Below are positions 1 through 16,918 of a DNA stretch of 45,015 nt, in pieces. A model generated the notes under the pieces. It was not told the DNA's origin and searched no databases. It was given only the letters and a program-made list of their open reading frames with translations. A program made the translations under genes and the position numbers. Within the stretch, counting starts at the first letter, position 1. Every line of letters starts with the position of its first letter. Location: NCBI GenBank assembly GCA_963754945.1, contig CAVWIG010000026.1, positions 1 to 45,015 on the forward strand, read 5' to 3'. Source of the DNA: Methanotrichaceae archaeon. Its GTDB lineage: Archaea > Halobacteriota > Methanosarcinia > Methanotrichales > Methanotrichaceae.

Positions 1-1425
1 CCCATCTTCAGGTTTGGTATAGCGAGTCCATGTTTTTGCCTGCCCTTTGTTGATAAGGTCCATAGCCTGAGTAAAGGTGTGATAGGCAAGATACGCTGAA
101 AACGCATGGAAGTAGGCTCGCGCTCTTATACGCTCTAGGGCATTGATGGTCTTCGGTATTTTCCATTCCAGGGTAAGCTCCTGCGGCACCCGGAATCCTT
201 CGACCGCGCCAGCAGGTAGGGTAAATTTGAATGAAGTACCGGTAGCCTCGGGGACTTTCCTGGCAAGGGCGGTTACCCACATCCGCGCCAGAGGCCCTGC
301 CTCAAGCGCGTAGGTCTGGCCATCTATCCTACGCTTCCAATCCTGCCAGCGTGGACTCTTCGCCCAGCTATATTTGTTTTGCCAGTCCTTTTCTTTCCCA
401 GGCCTAGCCGGGCTTTCCTCGTTCCAGGGGTGGTCTTTGCTTAACTTGTTGCCCAGCGGATCGTTTTCTATCTCCGCTGCTGGCGTCTCCTCGTAATAGG
501 AATGAGTAACGAACTCATTAGTTCCTACCTGTATTTCTACCAGGTCGGTGGTTATCAGCTTGCCATCGAGAACTATACCAGGTGTTAAAGCCCTTTTTTC
601 ACCCCAGGCAGACATATGACCATATTCCGCATCGTAGGCAAACGGGTCGTCGTACATCCCATGACTCAGAAGATTGGGAGATGTTACCCCGGTTTTATCG
701 AGTCCGACTGCTGAGCAGAAGTCCAGCAAATCGTCAAATACACAGACCAGTTCTTTGGTAAAGGCTATCTCGCGTGCTACCAGAGCATAGAAGGTCTCCA
801 AATCCTTAACATTTGTTGTCTTAGCCACTCCTCCCGGTATCAGGGTCTGAACGTGAGGATGCTTGCCGCCCATCAAAGAGGCCATCTCTATACCTACCTT
901 TGAACCGTTGAGGCATTTCCGCCACAGGCTTCCTGTAATGGGGTTCAAACCGCGCATAATGTCCCCTATAGTCTCGTACCCATGGGAGTCAACCCTGGGA
1001 GACTTGGTCCTGTTAGCCTGCGCCATAATATCGGGATTGAGCCTGGACATGATAACCTCGGAATAATCAGGGCCTTCCAGTATTCCGCACCCCAACGCAC
1101 CGTCGTACACTTCTTCGGATAGCTCGATCATATTTCTTATAGCAACGGCAAAGGGTGGTGGCGGTGCCTGGTAGCACATGTCAACAGCGAGTGCGGATGC
1201 TGTGCCATGAGGGGTCGGGCAGACGCCGCACACCCGCTGTGTGAGCCAGATAGCGTCTGCCGGTTCACGATCCTTGAGGATAACTTCAATTCCCCGGAAC
1301 ATGGTGGCGTAGCAATAGGCATCCACGTATTTTCTTTGCTCCATGTCAGCCTCGGCATGAATGCCAAGGTGTCCTTCTATCCGGGTTAAAGGCTCAATGT
1401 CAACCTCAACTTTCTGCGTGACCAT
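1..1425 (-). CDS. [NiFe]-hydrogenase large subunit, group 1h-like; 3' end runs off the window
   Basis: Translated by hand from ATG at 1425 (AGGAGG RBS upstream), open for 475 codons to base 1: MVTQKVEVDIEPLTRIEGHLGIH...FRGIEVILKDREPADAIWLTQRVCGVCPTPH (L1 Ni-binding motif)...GGKHPH...DPLGNKLSKDHPWNE...KYSWAKSPRW. Absent from the ORF track because no stop lies in the window. Confidence 0.95.
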   Translation of the reverse strand, partial: MVTQKVEVDIEPLTRIEGHLGIHAEADMEQRKYVDAYCYATMFRGIEVILKDREPADAIWLTQRVCGVCPTPHGTASALAVDMCYQAPPPPFAVAIRNMIELSEEVYDGALGCGILEGPDYSEVIMSRLNPDIMAQANRTKSPRVDSHGYETIGDIMRGLNPITGSLWRKCLNGSKVGIEMASLMGGKHPHVQTLIPGGVAKTTNVKDLETFYALVAREIAFTKELVCVFDDLLDFCSAVGLDKTGVTSPNLLSHGMYDDPFAYDAEYGHMSAWGEKRALTPGIVLDGKLITTDLVEIQVGTNEFVTHSYYEETPAAEIENDPLGNKLSKDHPWNEESPARPGKEKDWQNKYSWAKSPRWQDWKRRIDGQTYALEAGPLARMWVTALARKVPEATGTSFKFTLPAGAVEGFRVPQELTLEWKIPKTINALERIRARAYFHAFSAYLAYHTFTQAMDLINKGQAKTWTRYTKPEDG

Positions 1426-1430
1426 AGCAG

Positions 1431-2406
1431 TTATATCCTCCTTGAAATTAAATGGAACAGATGCTCCTGGGCAGTGGCGCATTCTTTTATTTGGTGCGGA
1501 CTTCCTGGAGTGGTGCCTGTTGCCAGAGATTTCGCTGGAGCCATTTCAAAGAATGGAGAAAAGGGCTCATCAGGAAAACCCGGTTCCGTGCAGCCTATAC
1601 ATGGAGACCCAACCGTGGTACAGCCGCCGAAGTGCCCGGCAAACTTATCTCGTGGCACCTGACAATAACTGATAGGTCCCTTGCAGCCGAGCCATACCAT
1701 GCAATAAGGATCACCGAACTGATACGAATATTTTCCGACCGCGAAGTAACCACCGCGGGGGCAAATATGGTGGGCGAGCTCTCCATGAAGAAACGTGAGC
1801 CGGTTGTGCTCATCAAGCTCCGGCGGCACTGTAACGACACCTCTAGCCATTAACGCAATATAAGCCAGAGCTTTGATGTAATTATCTCCCGAAGCGGGAC
1901 AGCCAGACACGTTTATCACTGGGAGGCCAAGAGCACTCCGGTAGTTCTTCCCCAGGAAATCCATTAGTCCTTTAGCCCCGGTGGGATTGGGCTTCCCGGC
2001 AACAATGCCGCCAAAGGCAGCACAGGTACCTACTGCTACAGTAGCAGCGGCTCTATCCTTTAGTTCGAGCAGTAACTCGTTGGCGGTGACTAGCTTGCCT
2101 GCTCTGTCACCAACCGAGCAGAAGAATCCTCCCTGCCGGGACGCCTGCTCTTCATCAGGAATAGAGCCCTCAAAAATAAGGAGATAAGGGGTCCAGCTTA
2201 CCTTCCCGAGCGTCAGCCAGAACGCTCAGTGCTCTTTCTCCCCACGACGCCATAATCATGGGATGAAATGCAAGTTTAATATCGCCTACTTCAGGGAGCA
2301 CGCCGGTCAGCATGTCGATGAGCGAAGGGTCACCCGCCCCGATTAGAGATACGGTATCCCCGCCGCAACTCTGTCCGTGCAGCCAAATAAGATTTATTGG
2401 TTTCAT
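1431..2406 (-). CDS. [NiFe]-hydrogenase small subunit, split by a +1 indel at 2188-2191
   Basis: ORF 2170..2406 (LIWLHGQSCGGDT) joins DPYLLIFEGSIP...AVGTCAAFGGI and ORF 1431..1964 (GCP, HHICPR, CMVWLGCKGP, GGCTTVGSPCIGCTEPGFPD) when one base is removed from the GGGG run. Confidence 0.92.
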
Positions 2407-2995
2407 TTCATTACCCCCATATTATTTAACCTGAGCATGATTCTGGCGTCCACAAGTCTGAGCGGAAGGTCCTGAACGGCTCAGGTATACGCCTGCGGCG
2501 AACCTCTTGAAGAGCCTGGAGCTCTTTGGCCTTATATACATCTGTTGGATTTGAAAATATTTCAACATTATCGTCGCTTTTAATTCCCCTCTGTAAATTC
2601 TTTCAGAATATGGCTAAAAGAAATGGAAAGAAAATCCTGGAGTGTTCTGTTTCAATCCTGTTTGCAGTGCCGCCATGCTAGTTTTTTAAATTAACTAAAA
2701 ACAAATAATAGAAAACAGCAAAAACCAGAACAATTAGTATATTTACGATCAGGCGCGTCCAGAATTCATATCTAAGATATTTGAAATCTAAAAAGACTAT
2801 AAGGGCTACTGCTATCAGTGCATATATTATGTTAACTGTTAAATTCGCCATTTAAACATCAATCGTTTTTTATGAGTCGTTCTATTATTTAACCTTTGGT
2901 TTATAACATTGGTCGTTATGCGTTCTAATGAAATAGTTATATGTTTATAATGATACCGTTTTGGGATATGCTCTCATTAACCGTTCCAGTCATGT

Positions 2996-4009
2996 TTAAC
3001 AAATTCTTGGTAATAATTCACCCATAGGAACGTCGACAAAACGCGAGGCTCCGAGATTGGTTTTCATCACCACACGTCCAGGATGCCCGGCTACTACTTC
3101 GCCGATAAGTGCTGATTGTTGGCCATAACAATTCATCCGTATCCCGTCTAACACTGTTGGTGCGTCTTCTGGAGCTACAATAATTACCATTTTGCCTTCA
3201 TTAGCGATGTACAACGGGTCCAGGCCGAGCATTTCACATGCGCCGCGCACGGTTCTACCGACTGGTATGGTCGCCTCTTCTATTTCAATACCAACCGATG
3301 ATTGTTGAGCGATTTCATTGAGGGTCGTTGCCAACCCGCCCCGGGTTGGGTCCCGCAGGCAATGAACATTAGGCGAATCTTGTAGGATCCGAGCAACGAG
3401 GTGATTTAATGGGGCGCAGTCACTGATAACCGATGCTTCGAATTGGAGACCTTCGCGCTTACTCATAATAGCTATTCCATGATCTCCGATAGTCCCACTT
3501 AGAATTATCTTGTCCCCAATCCGGGCATTATGCCCGGAGATATTTAACCCGTCCGGTATCTTGCCCAGACCAGAGGTATTGATAAATAGTTTATCGGCAC
3601 CGTTTTTATTAACGACCTTCGTGTCACCGGTTACGATTAATACTCCCGCTTCTTCTGCGGTTTCCTTGATCGACCTCAAGATTTGCTCGAATTCGGATAA
3701 CAACAACCCTTCCTCGATAATAAAAGAGAGACTGAGATAAACTGGTGTTGCCCCGGCAGTAGCAAGATCGTTCACTGTTCCGCAAATTGCCAGTCGGCCA
3801 ATATCTCCGCCAGGAAAAAAGATCGGGCTGACAACATAACTATCAGTCGTGAAAGCGGTCTTCCCGGGTAGATCAATAACCGCAGAGTCATCCATTCGAG
3901 TAAGTATAGGATTACCGATGACGTCAACAATGATCTTGTTGACTAATTCCTGGCTAAGCTTACCACCGCTTCCATGAGCCAAAAGGATGCGTTCGGAATT
4001 AGTGCTCAA
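2996..4009 (-). CDS. hypE: Hydrogenase maturation carbamoyl dehydratase HypE
   Basis: ILLAHGSGG, FTTDSYVVSPIFFPGGDIG, TGDTKVV, RDPTRGG and C-terminal LPRIC. Likely TTG start at 4009, overlapping the hypD stop. Confidence 0.96.
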   Translation of the reverse strand: MSTNSERILLAHGSGGKLSQELVNKIIVDVIGNPILTRMDDSAVIDLPGKTAFTTDSYVVSPIFFPGGDIGRLAICGTVNDLATAGATPVYLSLSFIIEEGLLLSEFEQILRSIKETAEEAGVLIVTGDTKVVNKNGADKLFINTSGLGKIPDGLNISGHNARIGDKIILSGTIGDHGIAIMSKREGLQFEASVISDCAPLNHLVARILQDSPNVHCLRDPTRGGLATTLNEIAQQSSVGIEIEEATIPVGRTVRGACEMLGLDPLYIANEGKMVIIVAPEDAPTVLDGIRMNCYGQQSALIGEVVAGHPGRVVMKTNLGASRFVDVPMGELLPRIC

Positions 4010-5093
4010 TTTTCTCTCCGTACTGGTAATACGCTGCACAAGCTCCCTCGGTTGATACCATACAAGGACCGATTGGGTGTTCAGGCGTACAGGAAAATCC
4101 GAAGAGTCTACAATCCACGGGAGTTGAAACACCCCGTAATATTCTGCCGCATTGACATCCCGAAGGTTCATTTGCTGGATAAATTTTGATGTCGAAATTA
4201 GTCGCTGCGTCAAACCGCTGGTAATTCCGGTTAATTCTTAATCCACTAGCGGGCACCATGCCGATACCTCGCCAATCAGCATCGCTGATCTCAAATACCT
4301 GATCCATCAGCTTTAAAGCCTGCGGATTTCCATCGACCTTTACCCCGCGACGGTAGGCGATTTCAACAGAGTAATTTTCTTTTTCGATCTGATTGACCAG
4401 CATTGCAACGGTCTGGAGTATATCCAGAGGTTCAAATCCGGATACTACGCATCCGATATTATAGTCATGCGCAATGGATTCATAGGGCCGGGAGCCAATA
4501 ACAGCGCTTACATGCCCCGGACAGATGATACCGTTCAAGCGCACTTCACCGAGGTCGAGGATGGCTTTCATGATTGGGGGACAGACTTTATGTAAACACA
4601 GGACAAAGAAATTTTGAATATTATCCCTTTCAGCCTGTATAAGGGCGGCAGCGACAGTTGGAGCCGTAGTCTCAAAGCCAATACCAATGAAAACCACTCT
4701 TTTCTTGGGATTTTCGCGAGCTATCCTAAGCGCGTCGAGAACTGAATACACTACCCTGATATCAGACCCTTTTGCCTTTGCTATCTGTAGTGTTGATTGA
4801 GTTCCCGGTACTCTTATCATGTCCCCGAAGCTCGTAACGATCACATCAGGAAGGTCGGCCAAAGCTATTGCTTTATCAATATCCGTGGTCGAGGTAACAC
4901 ATACCGGGCATCCCGGACCGGAGAGCATCTCTATATTTTTGGGTAGCAGCTGTCGAATACCGTTTTTTATTATGCTGACAGTATGACTCCCGCAAAACTC
5001 CATAAGCCTTGTTTGCCGGCGGGAGGTGTTGTGAATATACTCGATTACTTGTTTCGCCAGTTCGGCGTCACGAAACTCATCAACGAACTTCAA
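3999..5093 (-). CDS. hypD: Hydrogenase maturation protein HypD
   Basis: MEFCGSHT, GPGCPVCVT, GFETTAP, PGHVS, GFEP and GPCMVSTEGACAAYY motifs. Confidence 0.97.
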   Translation of the reverse strand: MKFVDEFRDAELAKQVIEYIHNTSRRQTRLMEFCGSHTVSIIKNGIRQLLPKNIEMLSGPGCPVCVTSTTDIDKAIALADLPDVIVTSFGDMIRVPGTQSTLQIAKAKGSDIRVVYSVLDALRIARENPKKRVVFIGIGFETTAPTVAAALIQAERDNIQNFFVLCLHKVCPPIMKAILDLGEVRLNGIICPGHVSAVIGSRPYESIAHDYNIGCVVSGFEPLDILQTVAMLVNQIEKENYSVEIAYRRGVKVDGNPQALKLMDQVFEISDADWRGIGMVPASGLRINRNYQRFDAATNFDIKIYPANEPSGCQCGRILRGVSTPVDCRLFGFSCTPEHPIGPCMVSTEGACAAYYQYGEKIEH

Positions 5094-5298
5094 GAACTTG
5101 CCTCAACAGCTCAAGTGTTTGGAGGGCTTCGGTTTCATCAAGAATACCAATGGCAAATCCGGCGTGTAGAAGCACATAATCTCCTGCCTCAGCCTCTGGG
5201 GTGAGTTGAATGCTTATCTCTCGCCTGACTCCTTCGATGCTGACAACTGCTTCCTCCCCATCAATTGACTCAACCAACGCTGGTATGGCAAGACACAT
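5080..5298 (-). CDS. hypC: Hydrogenase maturation chaperone HypC
   Basis: N-terminal MCLAIP and GDYVLLHAGFAI, 72 aa. Confidence 0.97.
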   Translation of the reverse strand: MCLAIPALVESIDGEEAVVSIEGVRREISIQLTPEAEAGDYVLLHAGFAIGILDETEALQTLELLRQVLEVR

Positions 5299-5366
5299 TT
5301 TACCCTCCCGATTGTCTACAGGTTATTTTCATATCTTATACCATGATAGATCTGTATAAAAACATT

Positions 5367-7664
5367 TTATATCGCTGATAACGTTCCACCGATCACTGCC
5401 TGTCCTAATGATATCCCACCATCGTTACATGGTACCTGACGGTGTAGAATTACCGAAAGTCCGTCAGCTTTAAGTAGTTTCATCGCTTGTCTAAGTAACA
5501 GCCGATTCTGAAAAACTCCGCCGGACAAAGCTACTTGAGTAATCCCGGTTTCTTTTGAGATGGTCAGGCATAAAGAAGATATCATACGAGCGATAGTATT
5601 GTGAAAGCGTGCCGCGATTACAGGAATAGGTGTGCGATTGTGTATTTCCTTTATAATTGACTGAAATATCATGTCCAGACCGATCACATGAACACTCTCA
5701 TGGTCGCGCCAGCAGAAAGGATATTCGCCAGTCTCAGATGGGTATCTGGAAGCCAGGACTTCCAATTCTATAGCTGCCTGAGCATCGTACTGTATTATGT
5801 CTCTAACTCCTAAAAGGGCTGATACGGCATCAAAAAGTCGACCGCAACTGGATGTAAGGGGAGAGTTGAGATGGCGTGATACCTGCTGGGATACGATATT
5901 CAACTCATTCTGGTCCACGTGTTCTAGAAATGGCAAGTCCGCATTAAGGATGTCATCTCCAAGTAAAGTGACCAGATACCCCACTGCTGTGCGATATGGC
6001 TTTTTTATAGCGGCATCTCCTCCAGGGAGTGGAAGATACTGCAGGTGGGCCATCCGTCTAAAACTATGGTAGTCGGCAACCAAAAATTCCCCTCCCCAGA
6101 TATGACCATCCGTTCCGAGACCTGTACCATCAAAAGCTACTCCAATAACTGGTGATGTTACCCCAGCATCGGCCATGGCGCTGACAATGTGGGCATGATG
6201 ATGCTGAACGGGGACAAAATTCAGTCCTAGACGGGTGGCCAGTTCGATGGCATATCTTGTCGATAAATAATCTGGGTGCATGTCACCGGCAATTATTTCG
6301 GGCTGAACTCGGAATATGTTCTTATATAGCTCAATAGTTTCCTCGTAATGCCGGAGAGTCTCGGGACCATCCAGGTCTCCAATATGCTGACTTACAAAAG
6401 CGTATTCATCTGCGGTAAGACAGAAAGTATTTTTCTCTTGAGCACCACATGCCAGCACGTGAAGCCCCTGGTAACTTAGTTTGACTGGAAAAGGCGCATA
6501 ACCGCGCGCTCGCCTTATAACCTGTATTTGGCCTTGTTCGATCATCGTGACACTATCATCGTAAGTCGAATGGATAAGTCGGTCATGGACTAGAAAATAG
6601 TCCGGGATTCCGGAGAGTTTTTCAAATGCTTCACCATTATCTTTAGCGATAGGTTCCTCACTCAGGTTGCCACTGGTCATTACGAGAGGTAACGCTGTTT
6701 CCCGTAAGAGTAGATGATGTAATGGAGTATAGGGAAGCATTACTCCAAGGTGACGTAATCCGGGGGCGACGGAGGGAGAGATTGTAGAATGTACTCTACG
6801 CCGGAGCAAAACGATTGGGCTTTGAGGTGATCGTAGAAGATTTACTTCCTCTTTGTTGACAAGACAATATTGTTTCAATTGCTCGATTGTCTCAACCATA
6901 ACAGCTAAGGGTTTCATTGGTCGATTTTTACGCTTTCGCAGCAGTTCGACGGCTTGAGTATTAGTAGCATCACATGCTATAAGAAATCCTCCCAGTCCCT
7001 TCAGGGCGATTATTTTACCTTGTTTCAAAAGAGAAGCTGCCGTGATAATCGGATCATTAGTATTCAATTTATTGACTTTGTTATCAAACAACTCGAGTTG
7101 AGGTCCGCAGCTCGGACATGCATTGGGTTGCGCATGGAAACGTCGGTCATGAGGATCATCATATTCTTTTAGACATTCCGGGCACATTCGAAAATGACTC
7201 ATGGTGGTGCGGGGGCGGTCATAAGGAATATCCTCGATAATCGTGAATCGAGGGCCACAGTTCGTACAATTGGTGAACGGATAATGGTAACGGCGATTTC
7301 CCGGATTAAATATCTCGCTCTGGCAATCAGCGCATGTCGCAATATCCGGAGAAACTAACTGGTATTTGCCTTCGTTAATAACGCTGCTACGGATGGTGAA
7401 ACCAATACAACCCGTCGGGTTATCATATTTTGTTAAAATGTGCTCGATAATAGCTTGGGAAGGCGGTTTTCGTGTTAAGCCCTTAAGAAACGATTGTATT
7501 AATTTCGGTTTTCCTTCAATCCATATTGTAACATCTTCTGAAGTATTGTATACCCAGCCAGATAGTTCATATTTGGCAGCAAGCTGATAAACGAAGGGTC
7601 GGAAACCGACACCTTGAACAACTCCCCTAACATTAATTTGGGCAGCTATTTTGCTTTCTATCAT
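5367..7664 (-). CDS. hypF: Carbamoyltransferase HypF
   Basis: Acylphosphatase GVVQGVGFRPFVY, zinc-finger pairs CADC/CTNC and CPEC/CPSC, HHHAH, DGTGLGTDG and PCNDGGISLGQA. Confidence 0.97.
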   Translation of the reverse strand: MIESKIAAQINVRGVVQGVGFRPFVYQLAAKYELSGWVYNTSEDVTIWIEGKPKLIQSFLKGLTRKPPSQAIIEHILTKYDNPTGCIGFTIRSSVINEGKYQLVSPDIATCADCQSEIFNPGNRRYHYPFTNCTNCGPRFTIIEDIPYDRPRTTMSHFRMCPECLKEYDDPHDRRFHAQPNACPSCGPQLELFDNKVNKLNTNDPIITAASLLKQGKIIALKGLGGFLIACDATNTQAVELLRKRKNRPMKPLAVMVETIEQLKQYCLVNKEEVNLLRSPQSPIVLLRRRVHSTISPSVAPGLRHLGVMLPYTPLHHLLLRETALPLVMTSGNLSEEPIAKDNGEAFEKLSGIPDYFLVHDRLIHSTYDDSVTMIEQGQIQVIRRARGYAPFPVKLSYQGLHVLACGAQEKNTFCLTADEYAFVSQHIGDLDGPETLRHYEETIELYKNIFRVQPEIIAGDMHPDYLSTRYAIELATRLGLNFVPVQHHHAHIVSAMADAGVTSPVIGVAFDGTGLGTDGHIWGGEFLVADYHSFRRMAHLQYLPLPGGDAAIKKPYRTAVGYLVTLLGDDILNADLPFLEHVDQNELNIVSQQVSRHLNSPLTSSCGRLFDAVSALLGVRDIIQYDAQAAIELEVLASRYPSETGEYPFCWRDHESVHVIGLDMIFQSIIKEIHNRTPIPVIAARFHNTIARMISSLCLTISKETGITQVALSGGVFQNRLLLRQAMKLLKADGLSVILHRQVPCNDGGISLGQAVIGGTLSAI

Positions 7665-8186
7665 TTTCAGTTCATTCGCTTGATTTGCGATACCTATATT
7701 TAGAGTATTCCTAAAAACCCGGCCCAGATCATATTCATTTGGTCAAGATATTGACATATGCGCGGGCCTTGAAGCAACTACAATTGTATGGATAGCAAAA
7801 AATTTCACTGAGGACATCGAGCAACACTAGACTCGCTTAACGAAATAACTAAGGATGGATTTAATTTCTTCGGATTGGAGATCGAATTATGGCGTATAGG
7901 TAACTCTCCGATTGAACTAAATTCAATGTTGTGAGTAGCTCAATGAATGAGTTCGCCAACTTCCTATTACCCCAGAAAACCAGTTTCGAATTGATTATTG
8001 GATAAAATTTGTTGAATATTTTGCACGAGCACGGCAGCACCATAAGGACAGGCAAGCCTCAACCTTGGCATTATTTACCAGTTCCCATAGGACAGGCTAA
8101 CGTTGGCCTCAGTGTTATTGCACACACGAACTCGTCTCAAAACTATTAAAATCCCTTCTGACAAATAGTATCTGAAGGGGTAGCAA

Positions 8187-8870
8187 ATGAGATTCGTCGA
8201 ACTTAACGGTTAACAATTGGGTTTTATCAAACCGTATAGACAAAATAATCGATCCTCAGAGAAGATATTACCTCTCCAAGAGTTTTTATTTATTCTATTA
8301 TTCTAGTTAATTTTTGCCTTCGGGATAATTTTGGTAGAAGATCTCCAGTCCCTTGTGTTGGGTTTTGGACTTATAGCCGCCGCCTTCACTCTAACCATGC
8401 AGGATGTTGCCAAGAATTTCGTGGGCAGTTTGAGCATATTTTTTAACCGAATATATAGGATGGTCGATCGAATAGAGATCGGCTCCAAAAAAGGAGATGT
8501 GATCGACATCGATATATTTTATACCTCGATTATGGAAACAAATGAGTAGGTTTCGGCTACCAGCCCACTGGCAGGCTTTCCATAATTCCCAACAGCTATG
8601 TTTTATCTAATACTATCAATAATTATACAAAAGATTTTGATTTTCTCTGGGACGAGATCTCTTTTCCAATAACCTATAGCAGTGACTGGAAGGCCGCGAG
8701 AACCCTCATAATTAATGCCATTGGCCTGGAGACAAAGACGACCGAAGGGCTTGCCGAGAAAGAAATATCTCGTATGGAACGCAAGTACTTTCTCTCCAGG
8801 GATTCGATGAATGTGGAAGTGTTTGTCAGTTTGACGGACAACTGGATAGAGTTGACAGCTCGATACTTAC
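8187..8870 (+). pseudogene. Degraded MscS small-conductance mechanosensitive channel
   Basis: Fragments QDVAKNFVGSLSI...DRIEIGSKKGDVIDI, a TAG at 8547, then QPTGRLSIIPNSYV...NYTKDFDFLWDEI...LTDNWIELTARY; stops, frameshifts and 3' truncation. Confidence 0.8.
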
Positions 8871-9029
8871 TTCCAGCCTCATCTGGATCATCTCCTCCAC
8901 GTCCGAGGGCAAGGCGTGGAAGATCTCCTCGAGGATCTGTTTGGCTGTCTCCAACTCAAGGGTCCTGGGATTTACCATAGGCTTGAGCTCAAGTTGTCTA
9001 GCCCCTCGCTTCCCCTGCAATTTGATCAT
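8826..9029 (-). CDS. Small hypothetical protein (LELKPMVNPRTLELETAKQILEEIFH...), possibly a remnant
   Basis: C-terminal part of ORF 8826..9137 from ATG at 9029, overlapping the stop of the upstream remnant. It resembles, from memory, small Methanotrichaceae hypotheticals. Confidence 0.4.
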   Translation of the reverse strand: MIKLQGKRGARQLELKPMVNPRTLELETAKQILEEIFHALPSDVEEMIQMRLEVSIELSTLSSCPSN

Positions 9030-9494
9030 GTCCAGGCATCCAGCGTTGTCTGGCTTTTCTGCGCTTTTGGATAAGCTTTCGAAATAAGCTTCGTCGTAGC
9101 TCTTGGCCCTCGTCGAAATAGAACACTTGATCGGCATTTTTGGTCATGTCCTCCCGAAAGTATCAGTCTGTGAGTAAAGCAGGACTGCGGCCTCTTTGGT
9201 AGCATCATGCAAACCTTGGGAGAGATACTCCACCATCTCTTGGGCGTCCTCGTAGAGCAGGGGGTCGTGCTTCGATGACGATCAAGGAGTGGCGGGCCTG
9301 GCCCAGCAGATCTCCAGGTCCTGGAACCTGCGGTCCAACCGGCTAAGGTGATGAATAGTTGCCCCAGATATAGAGGACCTCGAAGCGCTGCATGTTGAGG
9401 TTGCGGTTTGAGAGCCTTGGAGAACATTTGGGGCTACGAGGGCGTTGAAGGACCTGGGTCGAAGGGAGACAGAGGGGTGGAGATCGAAGTCCAT
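9026..9494 (-). pseudogene. Frameshifted remnant of a conserved Methanotrichaceae hypothetical protein
   Basis: Pieces in different frames: MDFDLHPSVSLRPRSFNALVAP, LNMQRFEVLYIWGNYS, LSRLDRRFQDLE, HDPLLYEDAQEMVEYLSQGLHDATKEAAVLLYS and KAQKSQTTLDAWT. Confidence 0.5.
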
Positions 9495-9623
9495 ACCATC
9501 TCGTGGGAATTACAGGGATTAAAGTGCGAGGCGAGGTAGGAGGGCGAATGTGAAGCAGATAGAAAATATGGATTCCACTCGCTCGGGACTGCCCTCTTGC
9601 CCAACATACTGGCCGTATTTATC

Positions 9624-11035
9624 TCAATAATATTGCCGGATGTATGCATATGCACGATCGAACAGATCTTGGTCGGTGTGCAGCTTGTATTTCAGGAGCG
9701 CCTTTCGGAGTTCTTTCTGAACCAAGCGCTCACCCTGGCTGGTGTGCTGCCAGTCGGGGAAGCGGACCTTCTTAACGATCTCATCAATATCGTTAACGAT
9801 GCGTTCGACGATGATGTGAGTATTCTTGCTCTTGGCTTCAGAGAAAAGCTCAGTAAGCGCTTCCTTAGCCCGGTCACGTTCTTCTTTGGGATCGGTTTCC
9901 TTTTCCGCTTCGACGACTTCTTTTGCGATTTCGAGGATTTCCTTTAGGAACTCAAGGCTAGTGAGGAAGCCCAACTCATGACGTTCCTTAACCTTCTCCA
10001 GACGTTCACCAAGGGCAACGAACTTTGGATTACCGAGATGCTTGCGTAGCCTGGCAACCAGCATGATCTCGATCTTGCGGACCTGTTTCTCCCTGTCAGC
10101 ATCACCAAGGATTTCGTTCAGCACTTGTGCATCGAGGACTAGCGTTTCAAGGTCGTCTCGCACTGATTCAACGTGGACATTCTTGTTGATGAGGTCCACA
10201 GTTTTTGCGCCGAGGGCGTGCCAGAGGAGCTTGCCGTTGCCGCTAGGCGGCTTGACGGACTCATAGACCTGAGTCAACCAGCGGTAGTCCGTCTCATATG
10301 AACTAAGGATCGGATCGGGTGACAACGCCTCCCATATCGTGCCCAGGATGTTGTAATGGTCTGCGAACTTATCCCGCATTTCATTGTTTGGTAGGCACTG
10401 TTGTGCAGCGCTCAGTCCCTCGTAACCGCCAACCGTGCGGTCAACGCCAGCGAAGAAAGCCAGGCACTTTTGCACCTGCACGGGAAGGGATTTGCGCAGA
10501 TCGTCAATGTTGGAAATGACCTTCTGCACGGCCTTTTCGTCAAAGTCAAGCGCTCTGGCTACATCGTCGAATATGCCAATATAATCCACGATCAGACCAT
10601 GCGTTTTCTCCTGGCCGAAGGTGCGGTTGGTTCGGCAGATTGCTTGAAGGAGGTTGTGGTCCTTCATTGGCTTGTCGAGGTACATTACCTGCAAGATAGG
10701 TGCATCGAAGCCTGTGAGCAGTTTACTGGTAACGATCACGAATTGGAGTGGGTCGGCCGGGTCACGGAAACGGTCGAGCAGCTTTTCCTCGGCATCCCTA
10801 TCACGGATATGCTGTTTCCATTCAGTCGGATCGCCCTGTGCAGAAGTCATAACTACGGCGCTGGCCTCAGGGTCGATCAGCTTATCCATTGCCTGCTTAT
10901 AAAGTACGCAGCACTCCCGGTCAAAAACCACCACCTGCGCTTTGAATCCGTAAGGCTCAACTTTCTGATGGAAGTGATTTACGATATGCTTCACTACGGC
11001 GCTGATGCGCTCAGGGTTCTTGACTAGAACTGCAT
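9624..11035 (-). pseudogene. hsdR: Type I restriction enzyme R subunit, C-terminal half only
   Basis: KAQVVVFDRECC, IVTSKLLTGFDAP, MYLDKPMKDHNLLQAICRTNR and GLIVDYIGIF motifs. The frame opens only after a stop near 11077. The nuclease and Walker A/DEAD regions are missing, and no hsdM or hsdS is adjacent. Confidence 0.85.
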
Positions 11036-11104
11036 CTTCGATCTCTGCGGGGTCGAAGACTTTTACCGGAAGACCTACTCAATTATTGCGACCAGCACCA
11101 TGAA

Positions 11105-12979: not shown

Positions 12980-13248
12980 TCCTGGAATTTGAGCAATTCG
13001 CCAGGATTTTCCTTAAATTTCGAAATTGATTTGCACATCTTTATCCAATGAGAGTAAATCATAATTTGAAATATTAAATATATTTAAATAATCTGTTTTT
13101 CCAGAACTGCATATCTAGGTAGCTGTGGAGTTGATTCTTTTGTCCATCGGCTCTAAGCTCATAGAGTTTGAAATTTGTCTCCTTTCCCGAAAGCTGCCAT
13201 ATTTATACCACCTTCTCCTTCAGTTGGTAAAAAGGTGACCTAGGCTTG

Positions 13249-14220
13249 ATGGGAATAAACGAATTGGGATTCGAGGTCTTTGAGGAGATGCTGGACTTCG
13301 AGGACGAACTCCAGTTGGAAGTTACTGAGCTAGACAACGGCACAGTGGTTATCGATGCAGGAGTTAAGGCACGTGGCGGACTAGGAGCCGGCCTGTACCT
13401 CAGCCGACTGTGCATGGCAGACCTGGCGGACATCCAGATTACCCCAACGGATATTAAGGGCATTCTGGTTCCAGGCATCCGGGTCGCCACAGACCACCCG
13501 GTAGTTGCCTGCATGGCCTCCCAGTGCGCAATGTGGCAGATCAAGGCCGATAAGTACTTCGCCATGGCCAGCGGTCCAGCCAGGGCGCTTGCGCATAAGA
13601 CCAAAGAGCTGTACGAGAAGATCGGCTTCGAGGAGTTCTCCGACGTCGGGGTCCTTGTCCTTGAGTCTAACAAGCTTCCCGACTCGAAGGTCTCGGCCCA
13701 GATAGCAGAGAAGTGCGGGATAGATCCTGCAGACCTCAGGCTGGCAGTTGCTCCCACAGACTCAATGGCCGGAATGACCCAGGTATCAGCAAGGGTTGTG
13801 GAGACTGGCCTACACAAACTTTTCACAATGGGCTTCGACATAAATACGATCAGGAGCGGCTGGGGCAGGGCACCCATAGCGCCAGTGGTCGGAGACGCCA
13901 CCATGTGCATGGGAGCCTCGAACGACAGCATAATTTATGGTGGAGAAACCTACTACACCCTGGAGTACGAGAACATCGAAGAGCTACAGCAGTACCTGAG
14001 AAGCATGCCCTCCGTTGCGTCGAGAGATTACGGTGCTCCTTTCTACAAGACCTTCAAGGCGGCAGGCTTCGACTTCTTCAAGGTGGACCACAACGTCTTT
14101 GCCCCTGCGAAGGTAGTGGCAAACGAGCTTAAGTCCAGACGAACCTTTGTTTGCGGAAAGGTAAACCCTGAGGTGCTCATGGAGTCTTTCAACCTGGAAA
14201 TTCTGGACGCGTCTGCCTGA
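13249..14220 (+). CDS. mch: Methenyltetrahydromethanopterin cyclohydrolase
   Basis: VIDAGV, ACMASQCAMW, FAMASGPARAL, QVSARVVETGLHK, NDSIIYGG and DFFKVDHNVFAPA motifs. Confidence 0.96.
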   Translation: MGINELGFEVFEEMLDFEDELQLEVTELDNGTVVIDAGVKARGGLGAGLYLSRLCMADLADIQITPTDIKGILVPGIRVATDHPVVACMASQCAMWQIKADKYFAMASGPARALAHKTKELYEKIGFEEFSDVGVLVLESNKLPDSKVSAQIAEKCGIDPADLRLAVAPTDSMAGMTQVSARVVETGLHKLFTMGFDINTIRSGWGRAPIAPVVGDATMCMGASNDSIIYGGETYYTLEYENIEELQQYLRSMPSVASRDYGAPFYKTFKAAGFDFFKVDHNVFAPAKVVANELKSRRTFVCGKVNPEVLMESFNLEILDASA

Positions 14221-16669: not shown

Positions 16670-16918
16670 GCTTTGGAATTCTCACCATTTATTTACCGCA
16701 ATGTTCTCTTTTCTCAGCAGTTAATGGAAAAATTGCCCATATGGCCATATGCTCCCCTGGATGCCGTTTACCGGATCGCAGATAACGGGCGTTTAGAAGA
16801 AATTGGTTTTGCGGTTGAGAGCAGATTTGAGCGCAAGCTATTACTGCGATATTGACCGTATGTGGAGATCCAGGCCTGAGAAATATCCTGAACAGGCCAA
16901 AGAGGGGGAAAGGGAAAA

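Follow-up and report, generated by a model that had tools for sequence, protein, structure and literature searches.

How does a hydrogenase come to lie in the chromosome of a methanogen whose family is thought to have none? Methanothrix and related archaea count among the largest biological methane sources. Textbooks and models present them as specialists on acetate that lack hydrogenases, and excerpts of PMC10598746 and PMC8019784 that say so also describe the genomes of Methanothrix and Methanocrinis as lacking Frh, Mvh, Ech and Vho/Vht. The first 7,664 nucleotides of contig CAVWIG010000026.1, from the Methanotrichaceae genome GCA_963754945.1, do not fit this picture: a preliminary description of these letters had proposed a [NiFe]-hydrogenase with four maturation genes, acquired by a host of a hydrogenase-free family, a premise that matches both sources. 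Here, we analyze the 45,015 nt that form the start of this contig (termed the window) in the context of the remaining assembly, related genomes and public metagenomes. Positions 1-7726 are quite probably the larger part of an acquired uptake-hydrogenase cassette of ~8.5 kb that lies in a variable region of a Methanotrichaceae chromosome. Our literature searches returned no description of a hydrogenase in Methanotrichaceae; supplementary tables of papers on metagenome-assembled genomes (MAGs), e.g., PMC11264602 and PMC10598746, may list such genes.

A seven-gene hydrogenase cassette

Open reading frame (ORF) listing together with Pfam and NCBIfam profiles identified six genes in positions 1-7664, all co-oriented on the minus strand: hypF, hypC, hypD, hypE, a small subunit and a large subunit (Table 1). 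The four hyp frames are intact, as had been proposed, and in addition to the profile matches the end motifs MCLAIP and PRIC are in place. HypF comprises a carbamoyltransferase with acylphosphatase, zinc-finger, YrdC and Kae1-like domains. Genes for both subunits are likewise present, but neither is complete in the window. A single additional C in a run of Cs breaks the frame of the small subunit, a +1 frameshift relative to the copy on C42, another contig of the same assembly, and the large subunit runs off the contig start, leaving its L1 motif (QRVCGVCPTPH) without L2.

The missing parts are found on C42. Its positions 1-5471 correspond to the window read from 5713 to 1 at 98.2-98.9% identity, forming an end-to-end overlap of two contig ends, and the contig adds an intact small subunit of 324 aa (C42:3067-4041), a full-length large subunit (C42:4047-5792) and a maturation endopeptidase (TIGR00072, 116 bits). 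This large subunit ends in ...SFDPCLACCVGV..., with L2 reading SFDPCLACCVG and followed by a 17-residue tail. The suspicion that the large subunit might be truncated before L2 therefore holds for the window copy, which is cut by the contig end, but not for that on C42, and the suggested leftward extension recovered L2 and the maturation protease but no hypA or hypB. The two Cys pairs are thus distributed as L1 in the window and L2 (DPCLAC) in the C42 copy only (PF00374, 141-199 bits), while residues 2-296 of the C42 small subunit align to HofK with its iron-sulfur (FeS) cluster motifs conserved, including the Cys pattern of a three-cluster subunit. The complete gene order is hypF-hypC-hypD-hypE, small subunit, large subunit and protease, followed by rubredoxin-type genes.

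Across five copies, all seven genes align without gaps apart from the extra base of the window. Pairwise dN/dS between genomes is mostly 0.13-0.45 for all seven (full range 0.04-0.64, short genes having small counts), and the whole set is under purifying selection. The true start of the large subunit is the second Met, with relatives measuring 580-581 aa. A TAG codon in the related genome G079 was considered as a sign of a pseudogene or as a pyrrolysine site and ruled out for both, since it lies upstream of this start.

Two probable haplotypes of one locus in an archaeal chromosome

We read the window contig (C26 of the source MAG, G000) and C42 as two haplotypes of one locus in a ~29-kb variable region, left in the assembly as overlapping contig ends. 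This reading is based on the end-to-end overlap itself, on the uniqueness of the cassette ends, on other overlapping contig pairs and on a sister genome that has both flanks on one contig. The 5' part of hypF and the 3' part of the large subunit occur on no other contig of the assembly. At least four further contig pairs (C1/C30, C7/C24, C16/C50 and C29/C53) overlap end-to-end at 95.8-98.6% identity, indicating that the G000 MAG is a mixture of two closely related strains in which some stretches are duplicated. In the sister genome G010, of the same genus, matches to window positions 16671 down to 11052 and to C42:23882-29063 lie ~6 kb apart on one contig (C188), synteny resuming at window position 11052. 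Two true cassette copies in G000 are less likely, as there is a single left and a single right flank and similar end overlaps occur elsewhere. Counting C31/C54 as well, the overlaps at or near contig ends span 1.8-9 kb at 95.8-98.6% identity.

G000 is a 2.97-Mb MAG of 54 contigs (87.7% complete, 3.2% contamination) that carries mcrA, mch and DUF2114. The mch gene, which lies in the window, is 96% identical at the amino acid and 91% at the nucleotide level to that of G010, compared with 83-85% and 75-78% for G002 and G090, two more distant members of the family. Family placement, mcrA and the mch flank together bear out the earlier assignment of the host to Methanotrichaceae. The hydrogenase genes could nonetheless stem from a co-occurring bacterium through a binning error or a chimeric contig: their closest named relatives are bacterial, the MAG combines 3.2% contamination with strain mixture, and the 7.7-kb junction is known from the assembly. 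We consider such an origin very improbable, since the two contigs reach into the cassette from opposite ends, with outer flanks that are neighbors in G010. Moreover, the cassette lies inside a 234-kb contig in G002 and between folE2 (upstream) and the gene for ribosomal protein S3Ae (downstream) in G079, and a cluster of 28 related proteins at 90% identity or more includes one on a 3,259,148-bp contig named Methanotrichaceae archaeon.

Rarity and recent transfer among genera

The family of G000 is represented by 105 species genomes from 16 genera in the genome collection used. A large subunit was detected in four of them, three of which are among the 64 genomes with a completeness of 90% or more and a contamination of 5% or less. 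The carriers belong to three genera: G000 (one of three genomes in its genus), G002 (one of three), and G079 and G090 (two of 59). Any PF00374 match at E<=1e-12 and any HypD match pointed to the same 4/105 genomes, so that the search of the family proposed earlier shows the hydrogenase not to be a normal trait of the lineage; both other genomes of G000's own genus lack the cassette. Within G000, we found no match to [FeFe]-hydrogenases and, by PF00374, no other [NiFe]-hydrogenase, Ech-type (group 4) enzymes not having been searched for separately. Two weak PF00374 matches (C1:8316-10040 and C30:2-1282) were rejected as hydrogenases, being fused FpoC/FpoD-like subunits without the Ni-binding Cys pairs. 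As it scores 30 bits against a Pfam cut-off of 25.8, automated surveys could take this fused subunit for a hydrogenase.

Over its length of ~8.5 kb, which begins ~62 nt ahead of hypF and closes with the protease gene, the cassette is 94-97% identical at the nucleotide level among G000, G002, G079 and G090, and similarity ends sharply on both sides. The mch region of G000 is 91% identical to that of G010 and only 78% to that of G090 and 75% to that of G002, a yardstick that consists of this one core region, for which the query had no match in G079. The surroundings differ as well: in G002, a DDE transposase lies upstream, and downstream come a DUF4277 transposase fragment and a CHAT/NB-ARC protein; G079 has the two genes named above; and in G000 the cassette is flanked by a restriction-enzyme fragment and, at its opposite end, by IS66 and IS5-like elements. 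Metagenomes point to the same border. Contigs from four of them, each from a different study (marsh, freshwater sediment, freshwater and wastewater), cover window positions 1-7724 at 90-99%, while depth in the same four runs is 0 at 7745-8228 in all cases; two long contigs (runs X5 and X8) continue in sequence unlike the window at 7710 and 7724. No integrase, att site, tRNA target, flanking direct repeat or target duplication was identified at the cassette borders.

High identity of the cassette compared with the mch region, together with the differing contexts, argues for recent transfer. In all, the locus has the hallmarks of a transferred island, namely patchy presence, identity far above that of the core, three contexts and mobile-element genes nearby, and the comparisons clearly indicate that the cassette was horizontally acquired and has recently moved among three genera. 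The proposal of an acquired H2-metabolism module with its own maturation genes is thereby supported. Its presence in three genera might instead reflect a cassette ancestral to Methanotrichaceae and lost from nearly all lineages. This we regard as extremely improbable: identity across genera is 94-97% at the cassette and 75-78% at mch, the insertion context is different in each genome, the sister genomes of G000 are without it, and no relative above 57% identity occurs among 401 genomes of the same phylum.

Bacterial relatives of the cassette

Among those 401 genomes, sampled from the host's phylum, 31 (including G000) encode a relative at E<=1e-50, with the best at 57%, and none of the 52 genomes of a sister family (f2) in the same class has a match at this threshold. 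Much closer relatives are found in metagenomes, with proteins up to 83% and then 72-75% identical. The nearest that carry a name are from Dehalococcoidia (a member of the 72% cluster, and matches at 59-62%) and Planctomycetota (69%), followed by Korarchaeota, Bathyarchaeia and Altiarchaeales at 54-59%. We inferred a quick maximum-likelihood tree of 49 sequences, most of them unnamed, which we chose from more than 200 to span the identity range. The Methanotrichaceae sequences group with one unnamed protein (SH-aLRT 100), and this group nests in a 25-member clade (SH-aLRT 100), in which Planctomycetota and Dehalococcoidia are the only names, and archaeal relatives from the host's phylum fall elsewhere. 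A bacterial source of the cassette is therefore likely.

Gene neighborhoods were compared at 84 loci of relatives; because many of these loci are short, the counts are lower bounds. Adjoining the large subunit are a small subunit in 70, the protease in 68, hypE in 24, hypD in 23, hypF in 21 and hypC in 20 loci, and any other family in at most nine; an HdrD-like protein (8 loci) and a membrane protein (9 loci) adjoin more distant archaeal relatives. Cassettes of uncultured relatives labeled as Dehalococcoidia or Planctomycetota (e.g., L034, L036, L085 and L096; P0013, P0023 and P0047) have large subunits of 60-75% identity, the same seven genes, no hypAB beside them and a C-x-G-D motif in the small subunit. 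They differ in carrying His or Gln three residues after L2, where the present enzyme has Gly, and in their order of small subunit, large subunit, protease and hypFCDE, of which the Methanotrichaceae order is a circular permutation with the hyp genes first. In one locus (L031), hypE lies upstream of the small subunit in addition to hypFCDE downstream, and another (L067) contains two pairs of small and large subunits in a row. Tandem copies of this kind could explain the permuted order in Methanotrichaceae.

A probable cytosolic relative of group 1h hydrogenases

For both subunits, the best match of solved structure is HofG/HofK of Ralstonia eutropha (PDB 5aa5), at 436 bits for the large subunit (HofG; match over residues 6-562, the full length) and 210 bits for the small one (HofK, 5aa5_A), with the next groups at ~180 and 145; HofG/HofK was the sole group 1h reference in this comparison, which was made without references for groups 1f, 1g, 1l and 2e. 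Group 1h enzymes (formerly group 5, the actinobacterial type) scavenge atmospheric H2 and couple it to aerobic respiration. Korarchaeota have been reported to have both the 1g and the 1h/5 type (an excerpt of PMC10469681). Like HofKG, the present enzyme has two subunits, no signal peptide on the small subunit, a proximal C-x-x-D motif (GCDGD in HofK), a tail that extends beyond L2 at the C-terminus and a dedicated endopeptidase. The small subunit, which begins MKPINLIWLHGQSCGGD, starts only five residues ahead of the first cluster motif, too few for a Tat signal. This proximal-cluster motif reads C-G-G-D, Asp replacing the second Cys; of 70 small subunits from relatives, 31 have Asp and 33 have Cys at this position, which is unreadable in 6, and the Asp form is that of the closer relatives.

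On the other hand, the match to HofG of 436 bits compares with 750-1280 bits within the enzyme's own clade, and the signature motifs of group 1h are not reproduced: L1 is SRICGICGDNH there and QRVCGVCPTPH here, CGVCPxPH being common to the whole clade, and L2 is DPCLPCGV there and DPCLACCVG here. Lifestyle differs too, in that the present host is a strict anaerobe and its hydrogenase has relatives in metagenomes of sediment, marsh and wastewater. Owing to the differing L1 and L2 motifs, we file the enzyme as a relative of group 1h and not as a member. By its predicted features, it is a cytosolic two-subunit uptake-type [NiFe]-hydrogenase whose nearest solved relative is the O2-insensitive HofKG. 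It shares with Vht/Vho of Methanosarcina, from the same order of methanogens, the [NiFe] uptake type and maturation by Hyp proteins. The methanophenazine-reducing Vht/Vho enzymes, however, are Tat-exported and have a cytochrome b subunit, whereas the cassette encodes neither a signal peptide nor a cytochrome b.

The maturation set comprises HypC, HypD, HypE, HypF and a specific protease, rather than a full HypABCDEF complement. In the mechanism we envisage, HypCDEF would build the Fe(CN)2CO moiety, nickel would enter without HypA and HypB, the protease would trim the C-terminal tail of the large subunit, and the mature enzyme would oxidize H2 in the cytoplasm.

Rubredoxin-type genes and the possible role of the enzyme

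The activity of the enzyme, its electron acceptor and its physiological role are inferred from sequence. In the metagenome contig L028, the first gene after the protease is an intact fusion of Flavin_Reduct and Rubredoxin domains. In G090 the fusion is mostly deleted, leaving an N-terminal remnant, and apart from L028 and the broken gene of G000 the other copies are without it. The fusion is not a native gene of the family, because the other matching genomes (67/104) match its rubredoxin domain only. One or two rubredoxin genes come next and are intact in G090 and G079. On C42, a further rubredoxin and a fragment of a flavodiiron (ROO/FprA-like) gene follow, the best PDB match of the latter being rubredoxin:oxygen oxidoreductase (6e-10). 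Among the 85 sequences searched (L027 being a duplicate of L012), rubredoxin genes beside the hydrogenase were restricted to loci of the Methanotrichaceae type. Just beyond the cassette (C42:8136-8985 and C42:7909-8217), an IS66-family element interrupts the flavodiiron gene; copies ~95.6% identical to it lie on C3, C13, C15, C18 and C19.

In Moorella thermoacetica, a high-molecular-weight rubredoxin (flavin reductase-rubredoxin) occurs with a flavodiiron protein. The present locus resembles this system in the domains of the gene that follows the protease in L028 and in the flavodiiron fragment 0.9 kb further on in C42, and differs in that the genes are broken in G000 and that the coupling of such a chain to a hydrogenase is putative here. 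Electrons from H2 may pass through rubredoxin-type carriers to enzymes that reduce O2 or reactive oxygen species (ROS), such as flavodiiron proteins, and not to methanogenesis. H2 uptake that feeds rubredoxin-type carriers for O2/ROS defense is the role we tentatively favor, ahead of coupling to the membrane electron chain and, in last place, of a silent passenger.

Several observations weigh against this reading. The cassette region of G000 is decaying: a 7-bp duplication and two 1-bp indels disrupt its fusion gene, the rubredoxin gene behind it is broken as well, the IS66 element splits the flavodiiron gene, and the small subunit of the window haplotype would be inactive unless the extra base is an assembly error. 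G002 retains only a rubredoxin remnant, so that the rubredoxin link is not obligatory, and the cassettes labeled as bacterial have no adjoining rubredoxin genes. Three positions past L2, the present enzyme has Gly where most relatives have His and one subclade has Gln. HypA had no match above the cut-off in G000, G002, G079 or G090, two of which are 97-98% complete, and in the same genomes HypB gave sub-threshold matches only (45-60 bits against a cut-off of 121). Lastly, no RNA run is among the sequencing runs that contain the stretch, the best of which shares 0.28 of its words.

Several of these points would be explained if the cassette were a decaying, non-functional passenger in G000 and perhaps throughout the family. 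The frameshift of the small subunit, the pseudogenized fusion and rubredoxin genes and the IS66 cut in C42, the missing HypA and HypB and the Gly after L2 are all in keeping with such a fate. Yet the seven genes are under purifying selection between genomes, and every frame is open in the C42 haplotype and the three other genomes. The extra C lies in a homopolymer and is missing from contigs of three other metagenomes that cover the site (runs X1, X5 and X8; position 2188), and may be an error or a recent private mutation. The His after L2 is also replaced, by Gln, in relatives, and cassettes of the bacterial type are equally without adjoining hypAB. We judge a mere passenger to be more improbable than either of the functional roles considered here.

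The second of these is a cassette that feeds energy metabolism, its electrons passing to methanophenazine or heterodisulfide reductase, or supporting the CO2-reduction genes retained in Methanothrix, which would make some members of the family facultative H2 users. Such a role would be consistent with seven genes intact in C42, G002 and G079 at a dN/dS of ~0.2, with the persistence of the cassette in G002 without rubredoxin genes, with the HdrD-like protein (8/84) and membrane protein (9/84) beside more distant relatives, and with an optional 57-aa hydrophobic ORF within the cassette. Against it stand the lack of a cytochrome b or Isp-type partner in the cassette and a small subunit that has neither signal peptide nor membrane anchor. 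CO2 reduction with H2 also needs reduced ferredoxin and F420H2, normally provided by Eha/Ech, Mvh or Frh; as PF00374 found no other match in G000, with the limit for group 4 given above, this further counts against a role in energy metabolism, which we consider unlikely.

Returning to O2/ROS defense, the full scenario would be that a seven-gene cassette of an undescribed sister clade of group 1h crossed from bacteria, spreads among Methanotrichaceae genera, matures without HypA and HypB, and powers the removal of O2 or ROS through rubredoxin and flavodiiron proteins or another maintenance reaction. As a chain of steps, this is possible but rather doubtful. If true, some "obligate acetoclasts" would have gained a cytoplasmic H2-oxidizing enzyme, which would help to explain how relatives of Methanothrix persist in periodically oxygenated wetlands and soils. 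A hydrogenase cassette under selection in some species means that H2 may influence survival or redox balance in marshes, sediments and digesters, and that being "hydrogenase-free" cannot be taken as a fixed family trait. With two structural genes, a protease and HypCDEF, the cassette is also a natural example of a minimal, transferable [NiFe] module. It works, or has at least been kept, after its likely transfer between domains, which makes it interesting for producing hydrogenases in heterologous hosts. The wider clade occurs commonly in anoxic metagenomes and has no described electron acceptor.

Layout of the window and minor features

The features of the window and its flank are collected in Table 1.

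Table 1. Positions of the cassette genes and of neighboring features in the window.
Feature	Position	Strand	Evidence or remark
[NiFe] large subunit, N-terminal 475/581 residues	1-1425	-	PF00374, 141 bits
[NiFe] small subunit	1431-2406	-	NiFe_hyd_SSU_C; ORF pieces 2170-2406 + 1431-1964
Frameshift site in small subunit	2188-2191	-	CCCC in window vs CCC in C42 copy
Spacer element upstream of small subunit, ~75-90 nt	2500-2590	-	inverted repeat TTGAAATATTTTCAA + TATA-like box
Optional 57-aa ORF, two hydrophobic stretches	2678-2851	-	in long form of hypE-small subunit spacer
hypE	2996-4009	-	TIGR02124, 461 bits; TTG start at 4009 behind GGAGAG; C-terminus ...PRIC
hypD	3999-5093	-	PF01924, 506 bits; TIGR00075, 476 bits
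hypC	5080-5298	-	PF01455, 92 bits; N-terminus MCLAIP
hypF	5367-7664	-	TIGR00143, 835 bits; six Pfam domains
hypF upstream region, TATA-like box, left cassette border	7665-7726	-	similarity to G002 ends ~62 nt upstream of hypF ATG
Strain-specific flank	7727-11052	.	part of ~29-kb variable region; not present in same-genus G010
Probable type I restriction enzyme R-subunit fragment, 456-aa ORF	9624-10994	-	T1R_D3-like; match to domain 3 only
mch (methenyl-H4MPT cyclohydrolase)	13246-14220	+	PF02289, 421 bits; host anchor and identity yardstick

The spacer element is kept in every copy of the cassette, where it always precedes the small-subunit gene, and is a candidate promoter and operator of archaeal type. 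G079 has a second copy (L014:1625-1710) directly upstream of hypF in place of the usual upstream region, which looks as if both units had come under one control element. The 57-aa ORF is intact in the window, in G079 (L014:6544-6714) and in the metagenome contig L029, and deleted in C42 and G002; a Pfam search with it gave no match. Just outside the cassette border, a 73-nt stretch (7823-7895) is 88% identical to C18:84987-85058 and may be one of the genome's short multicopy elements.

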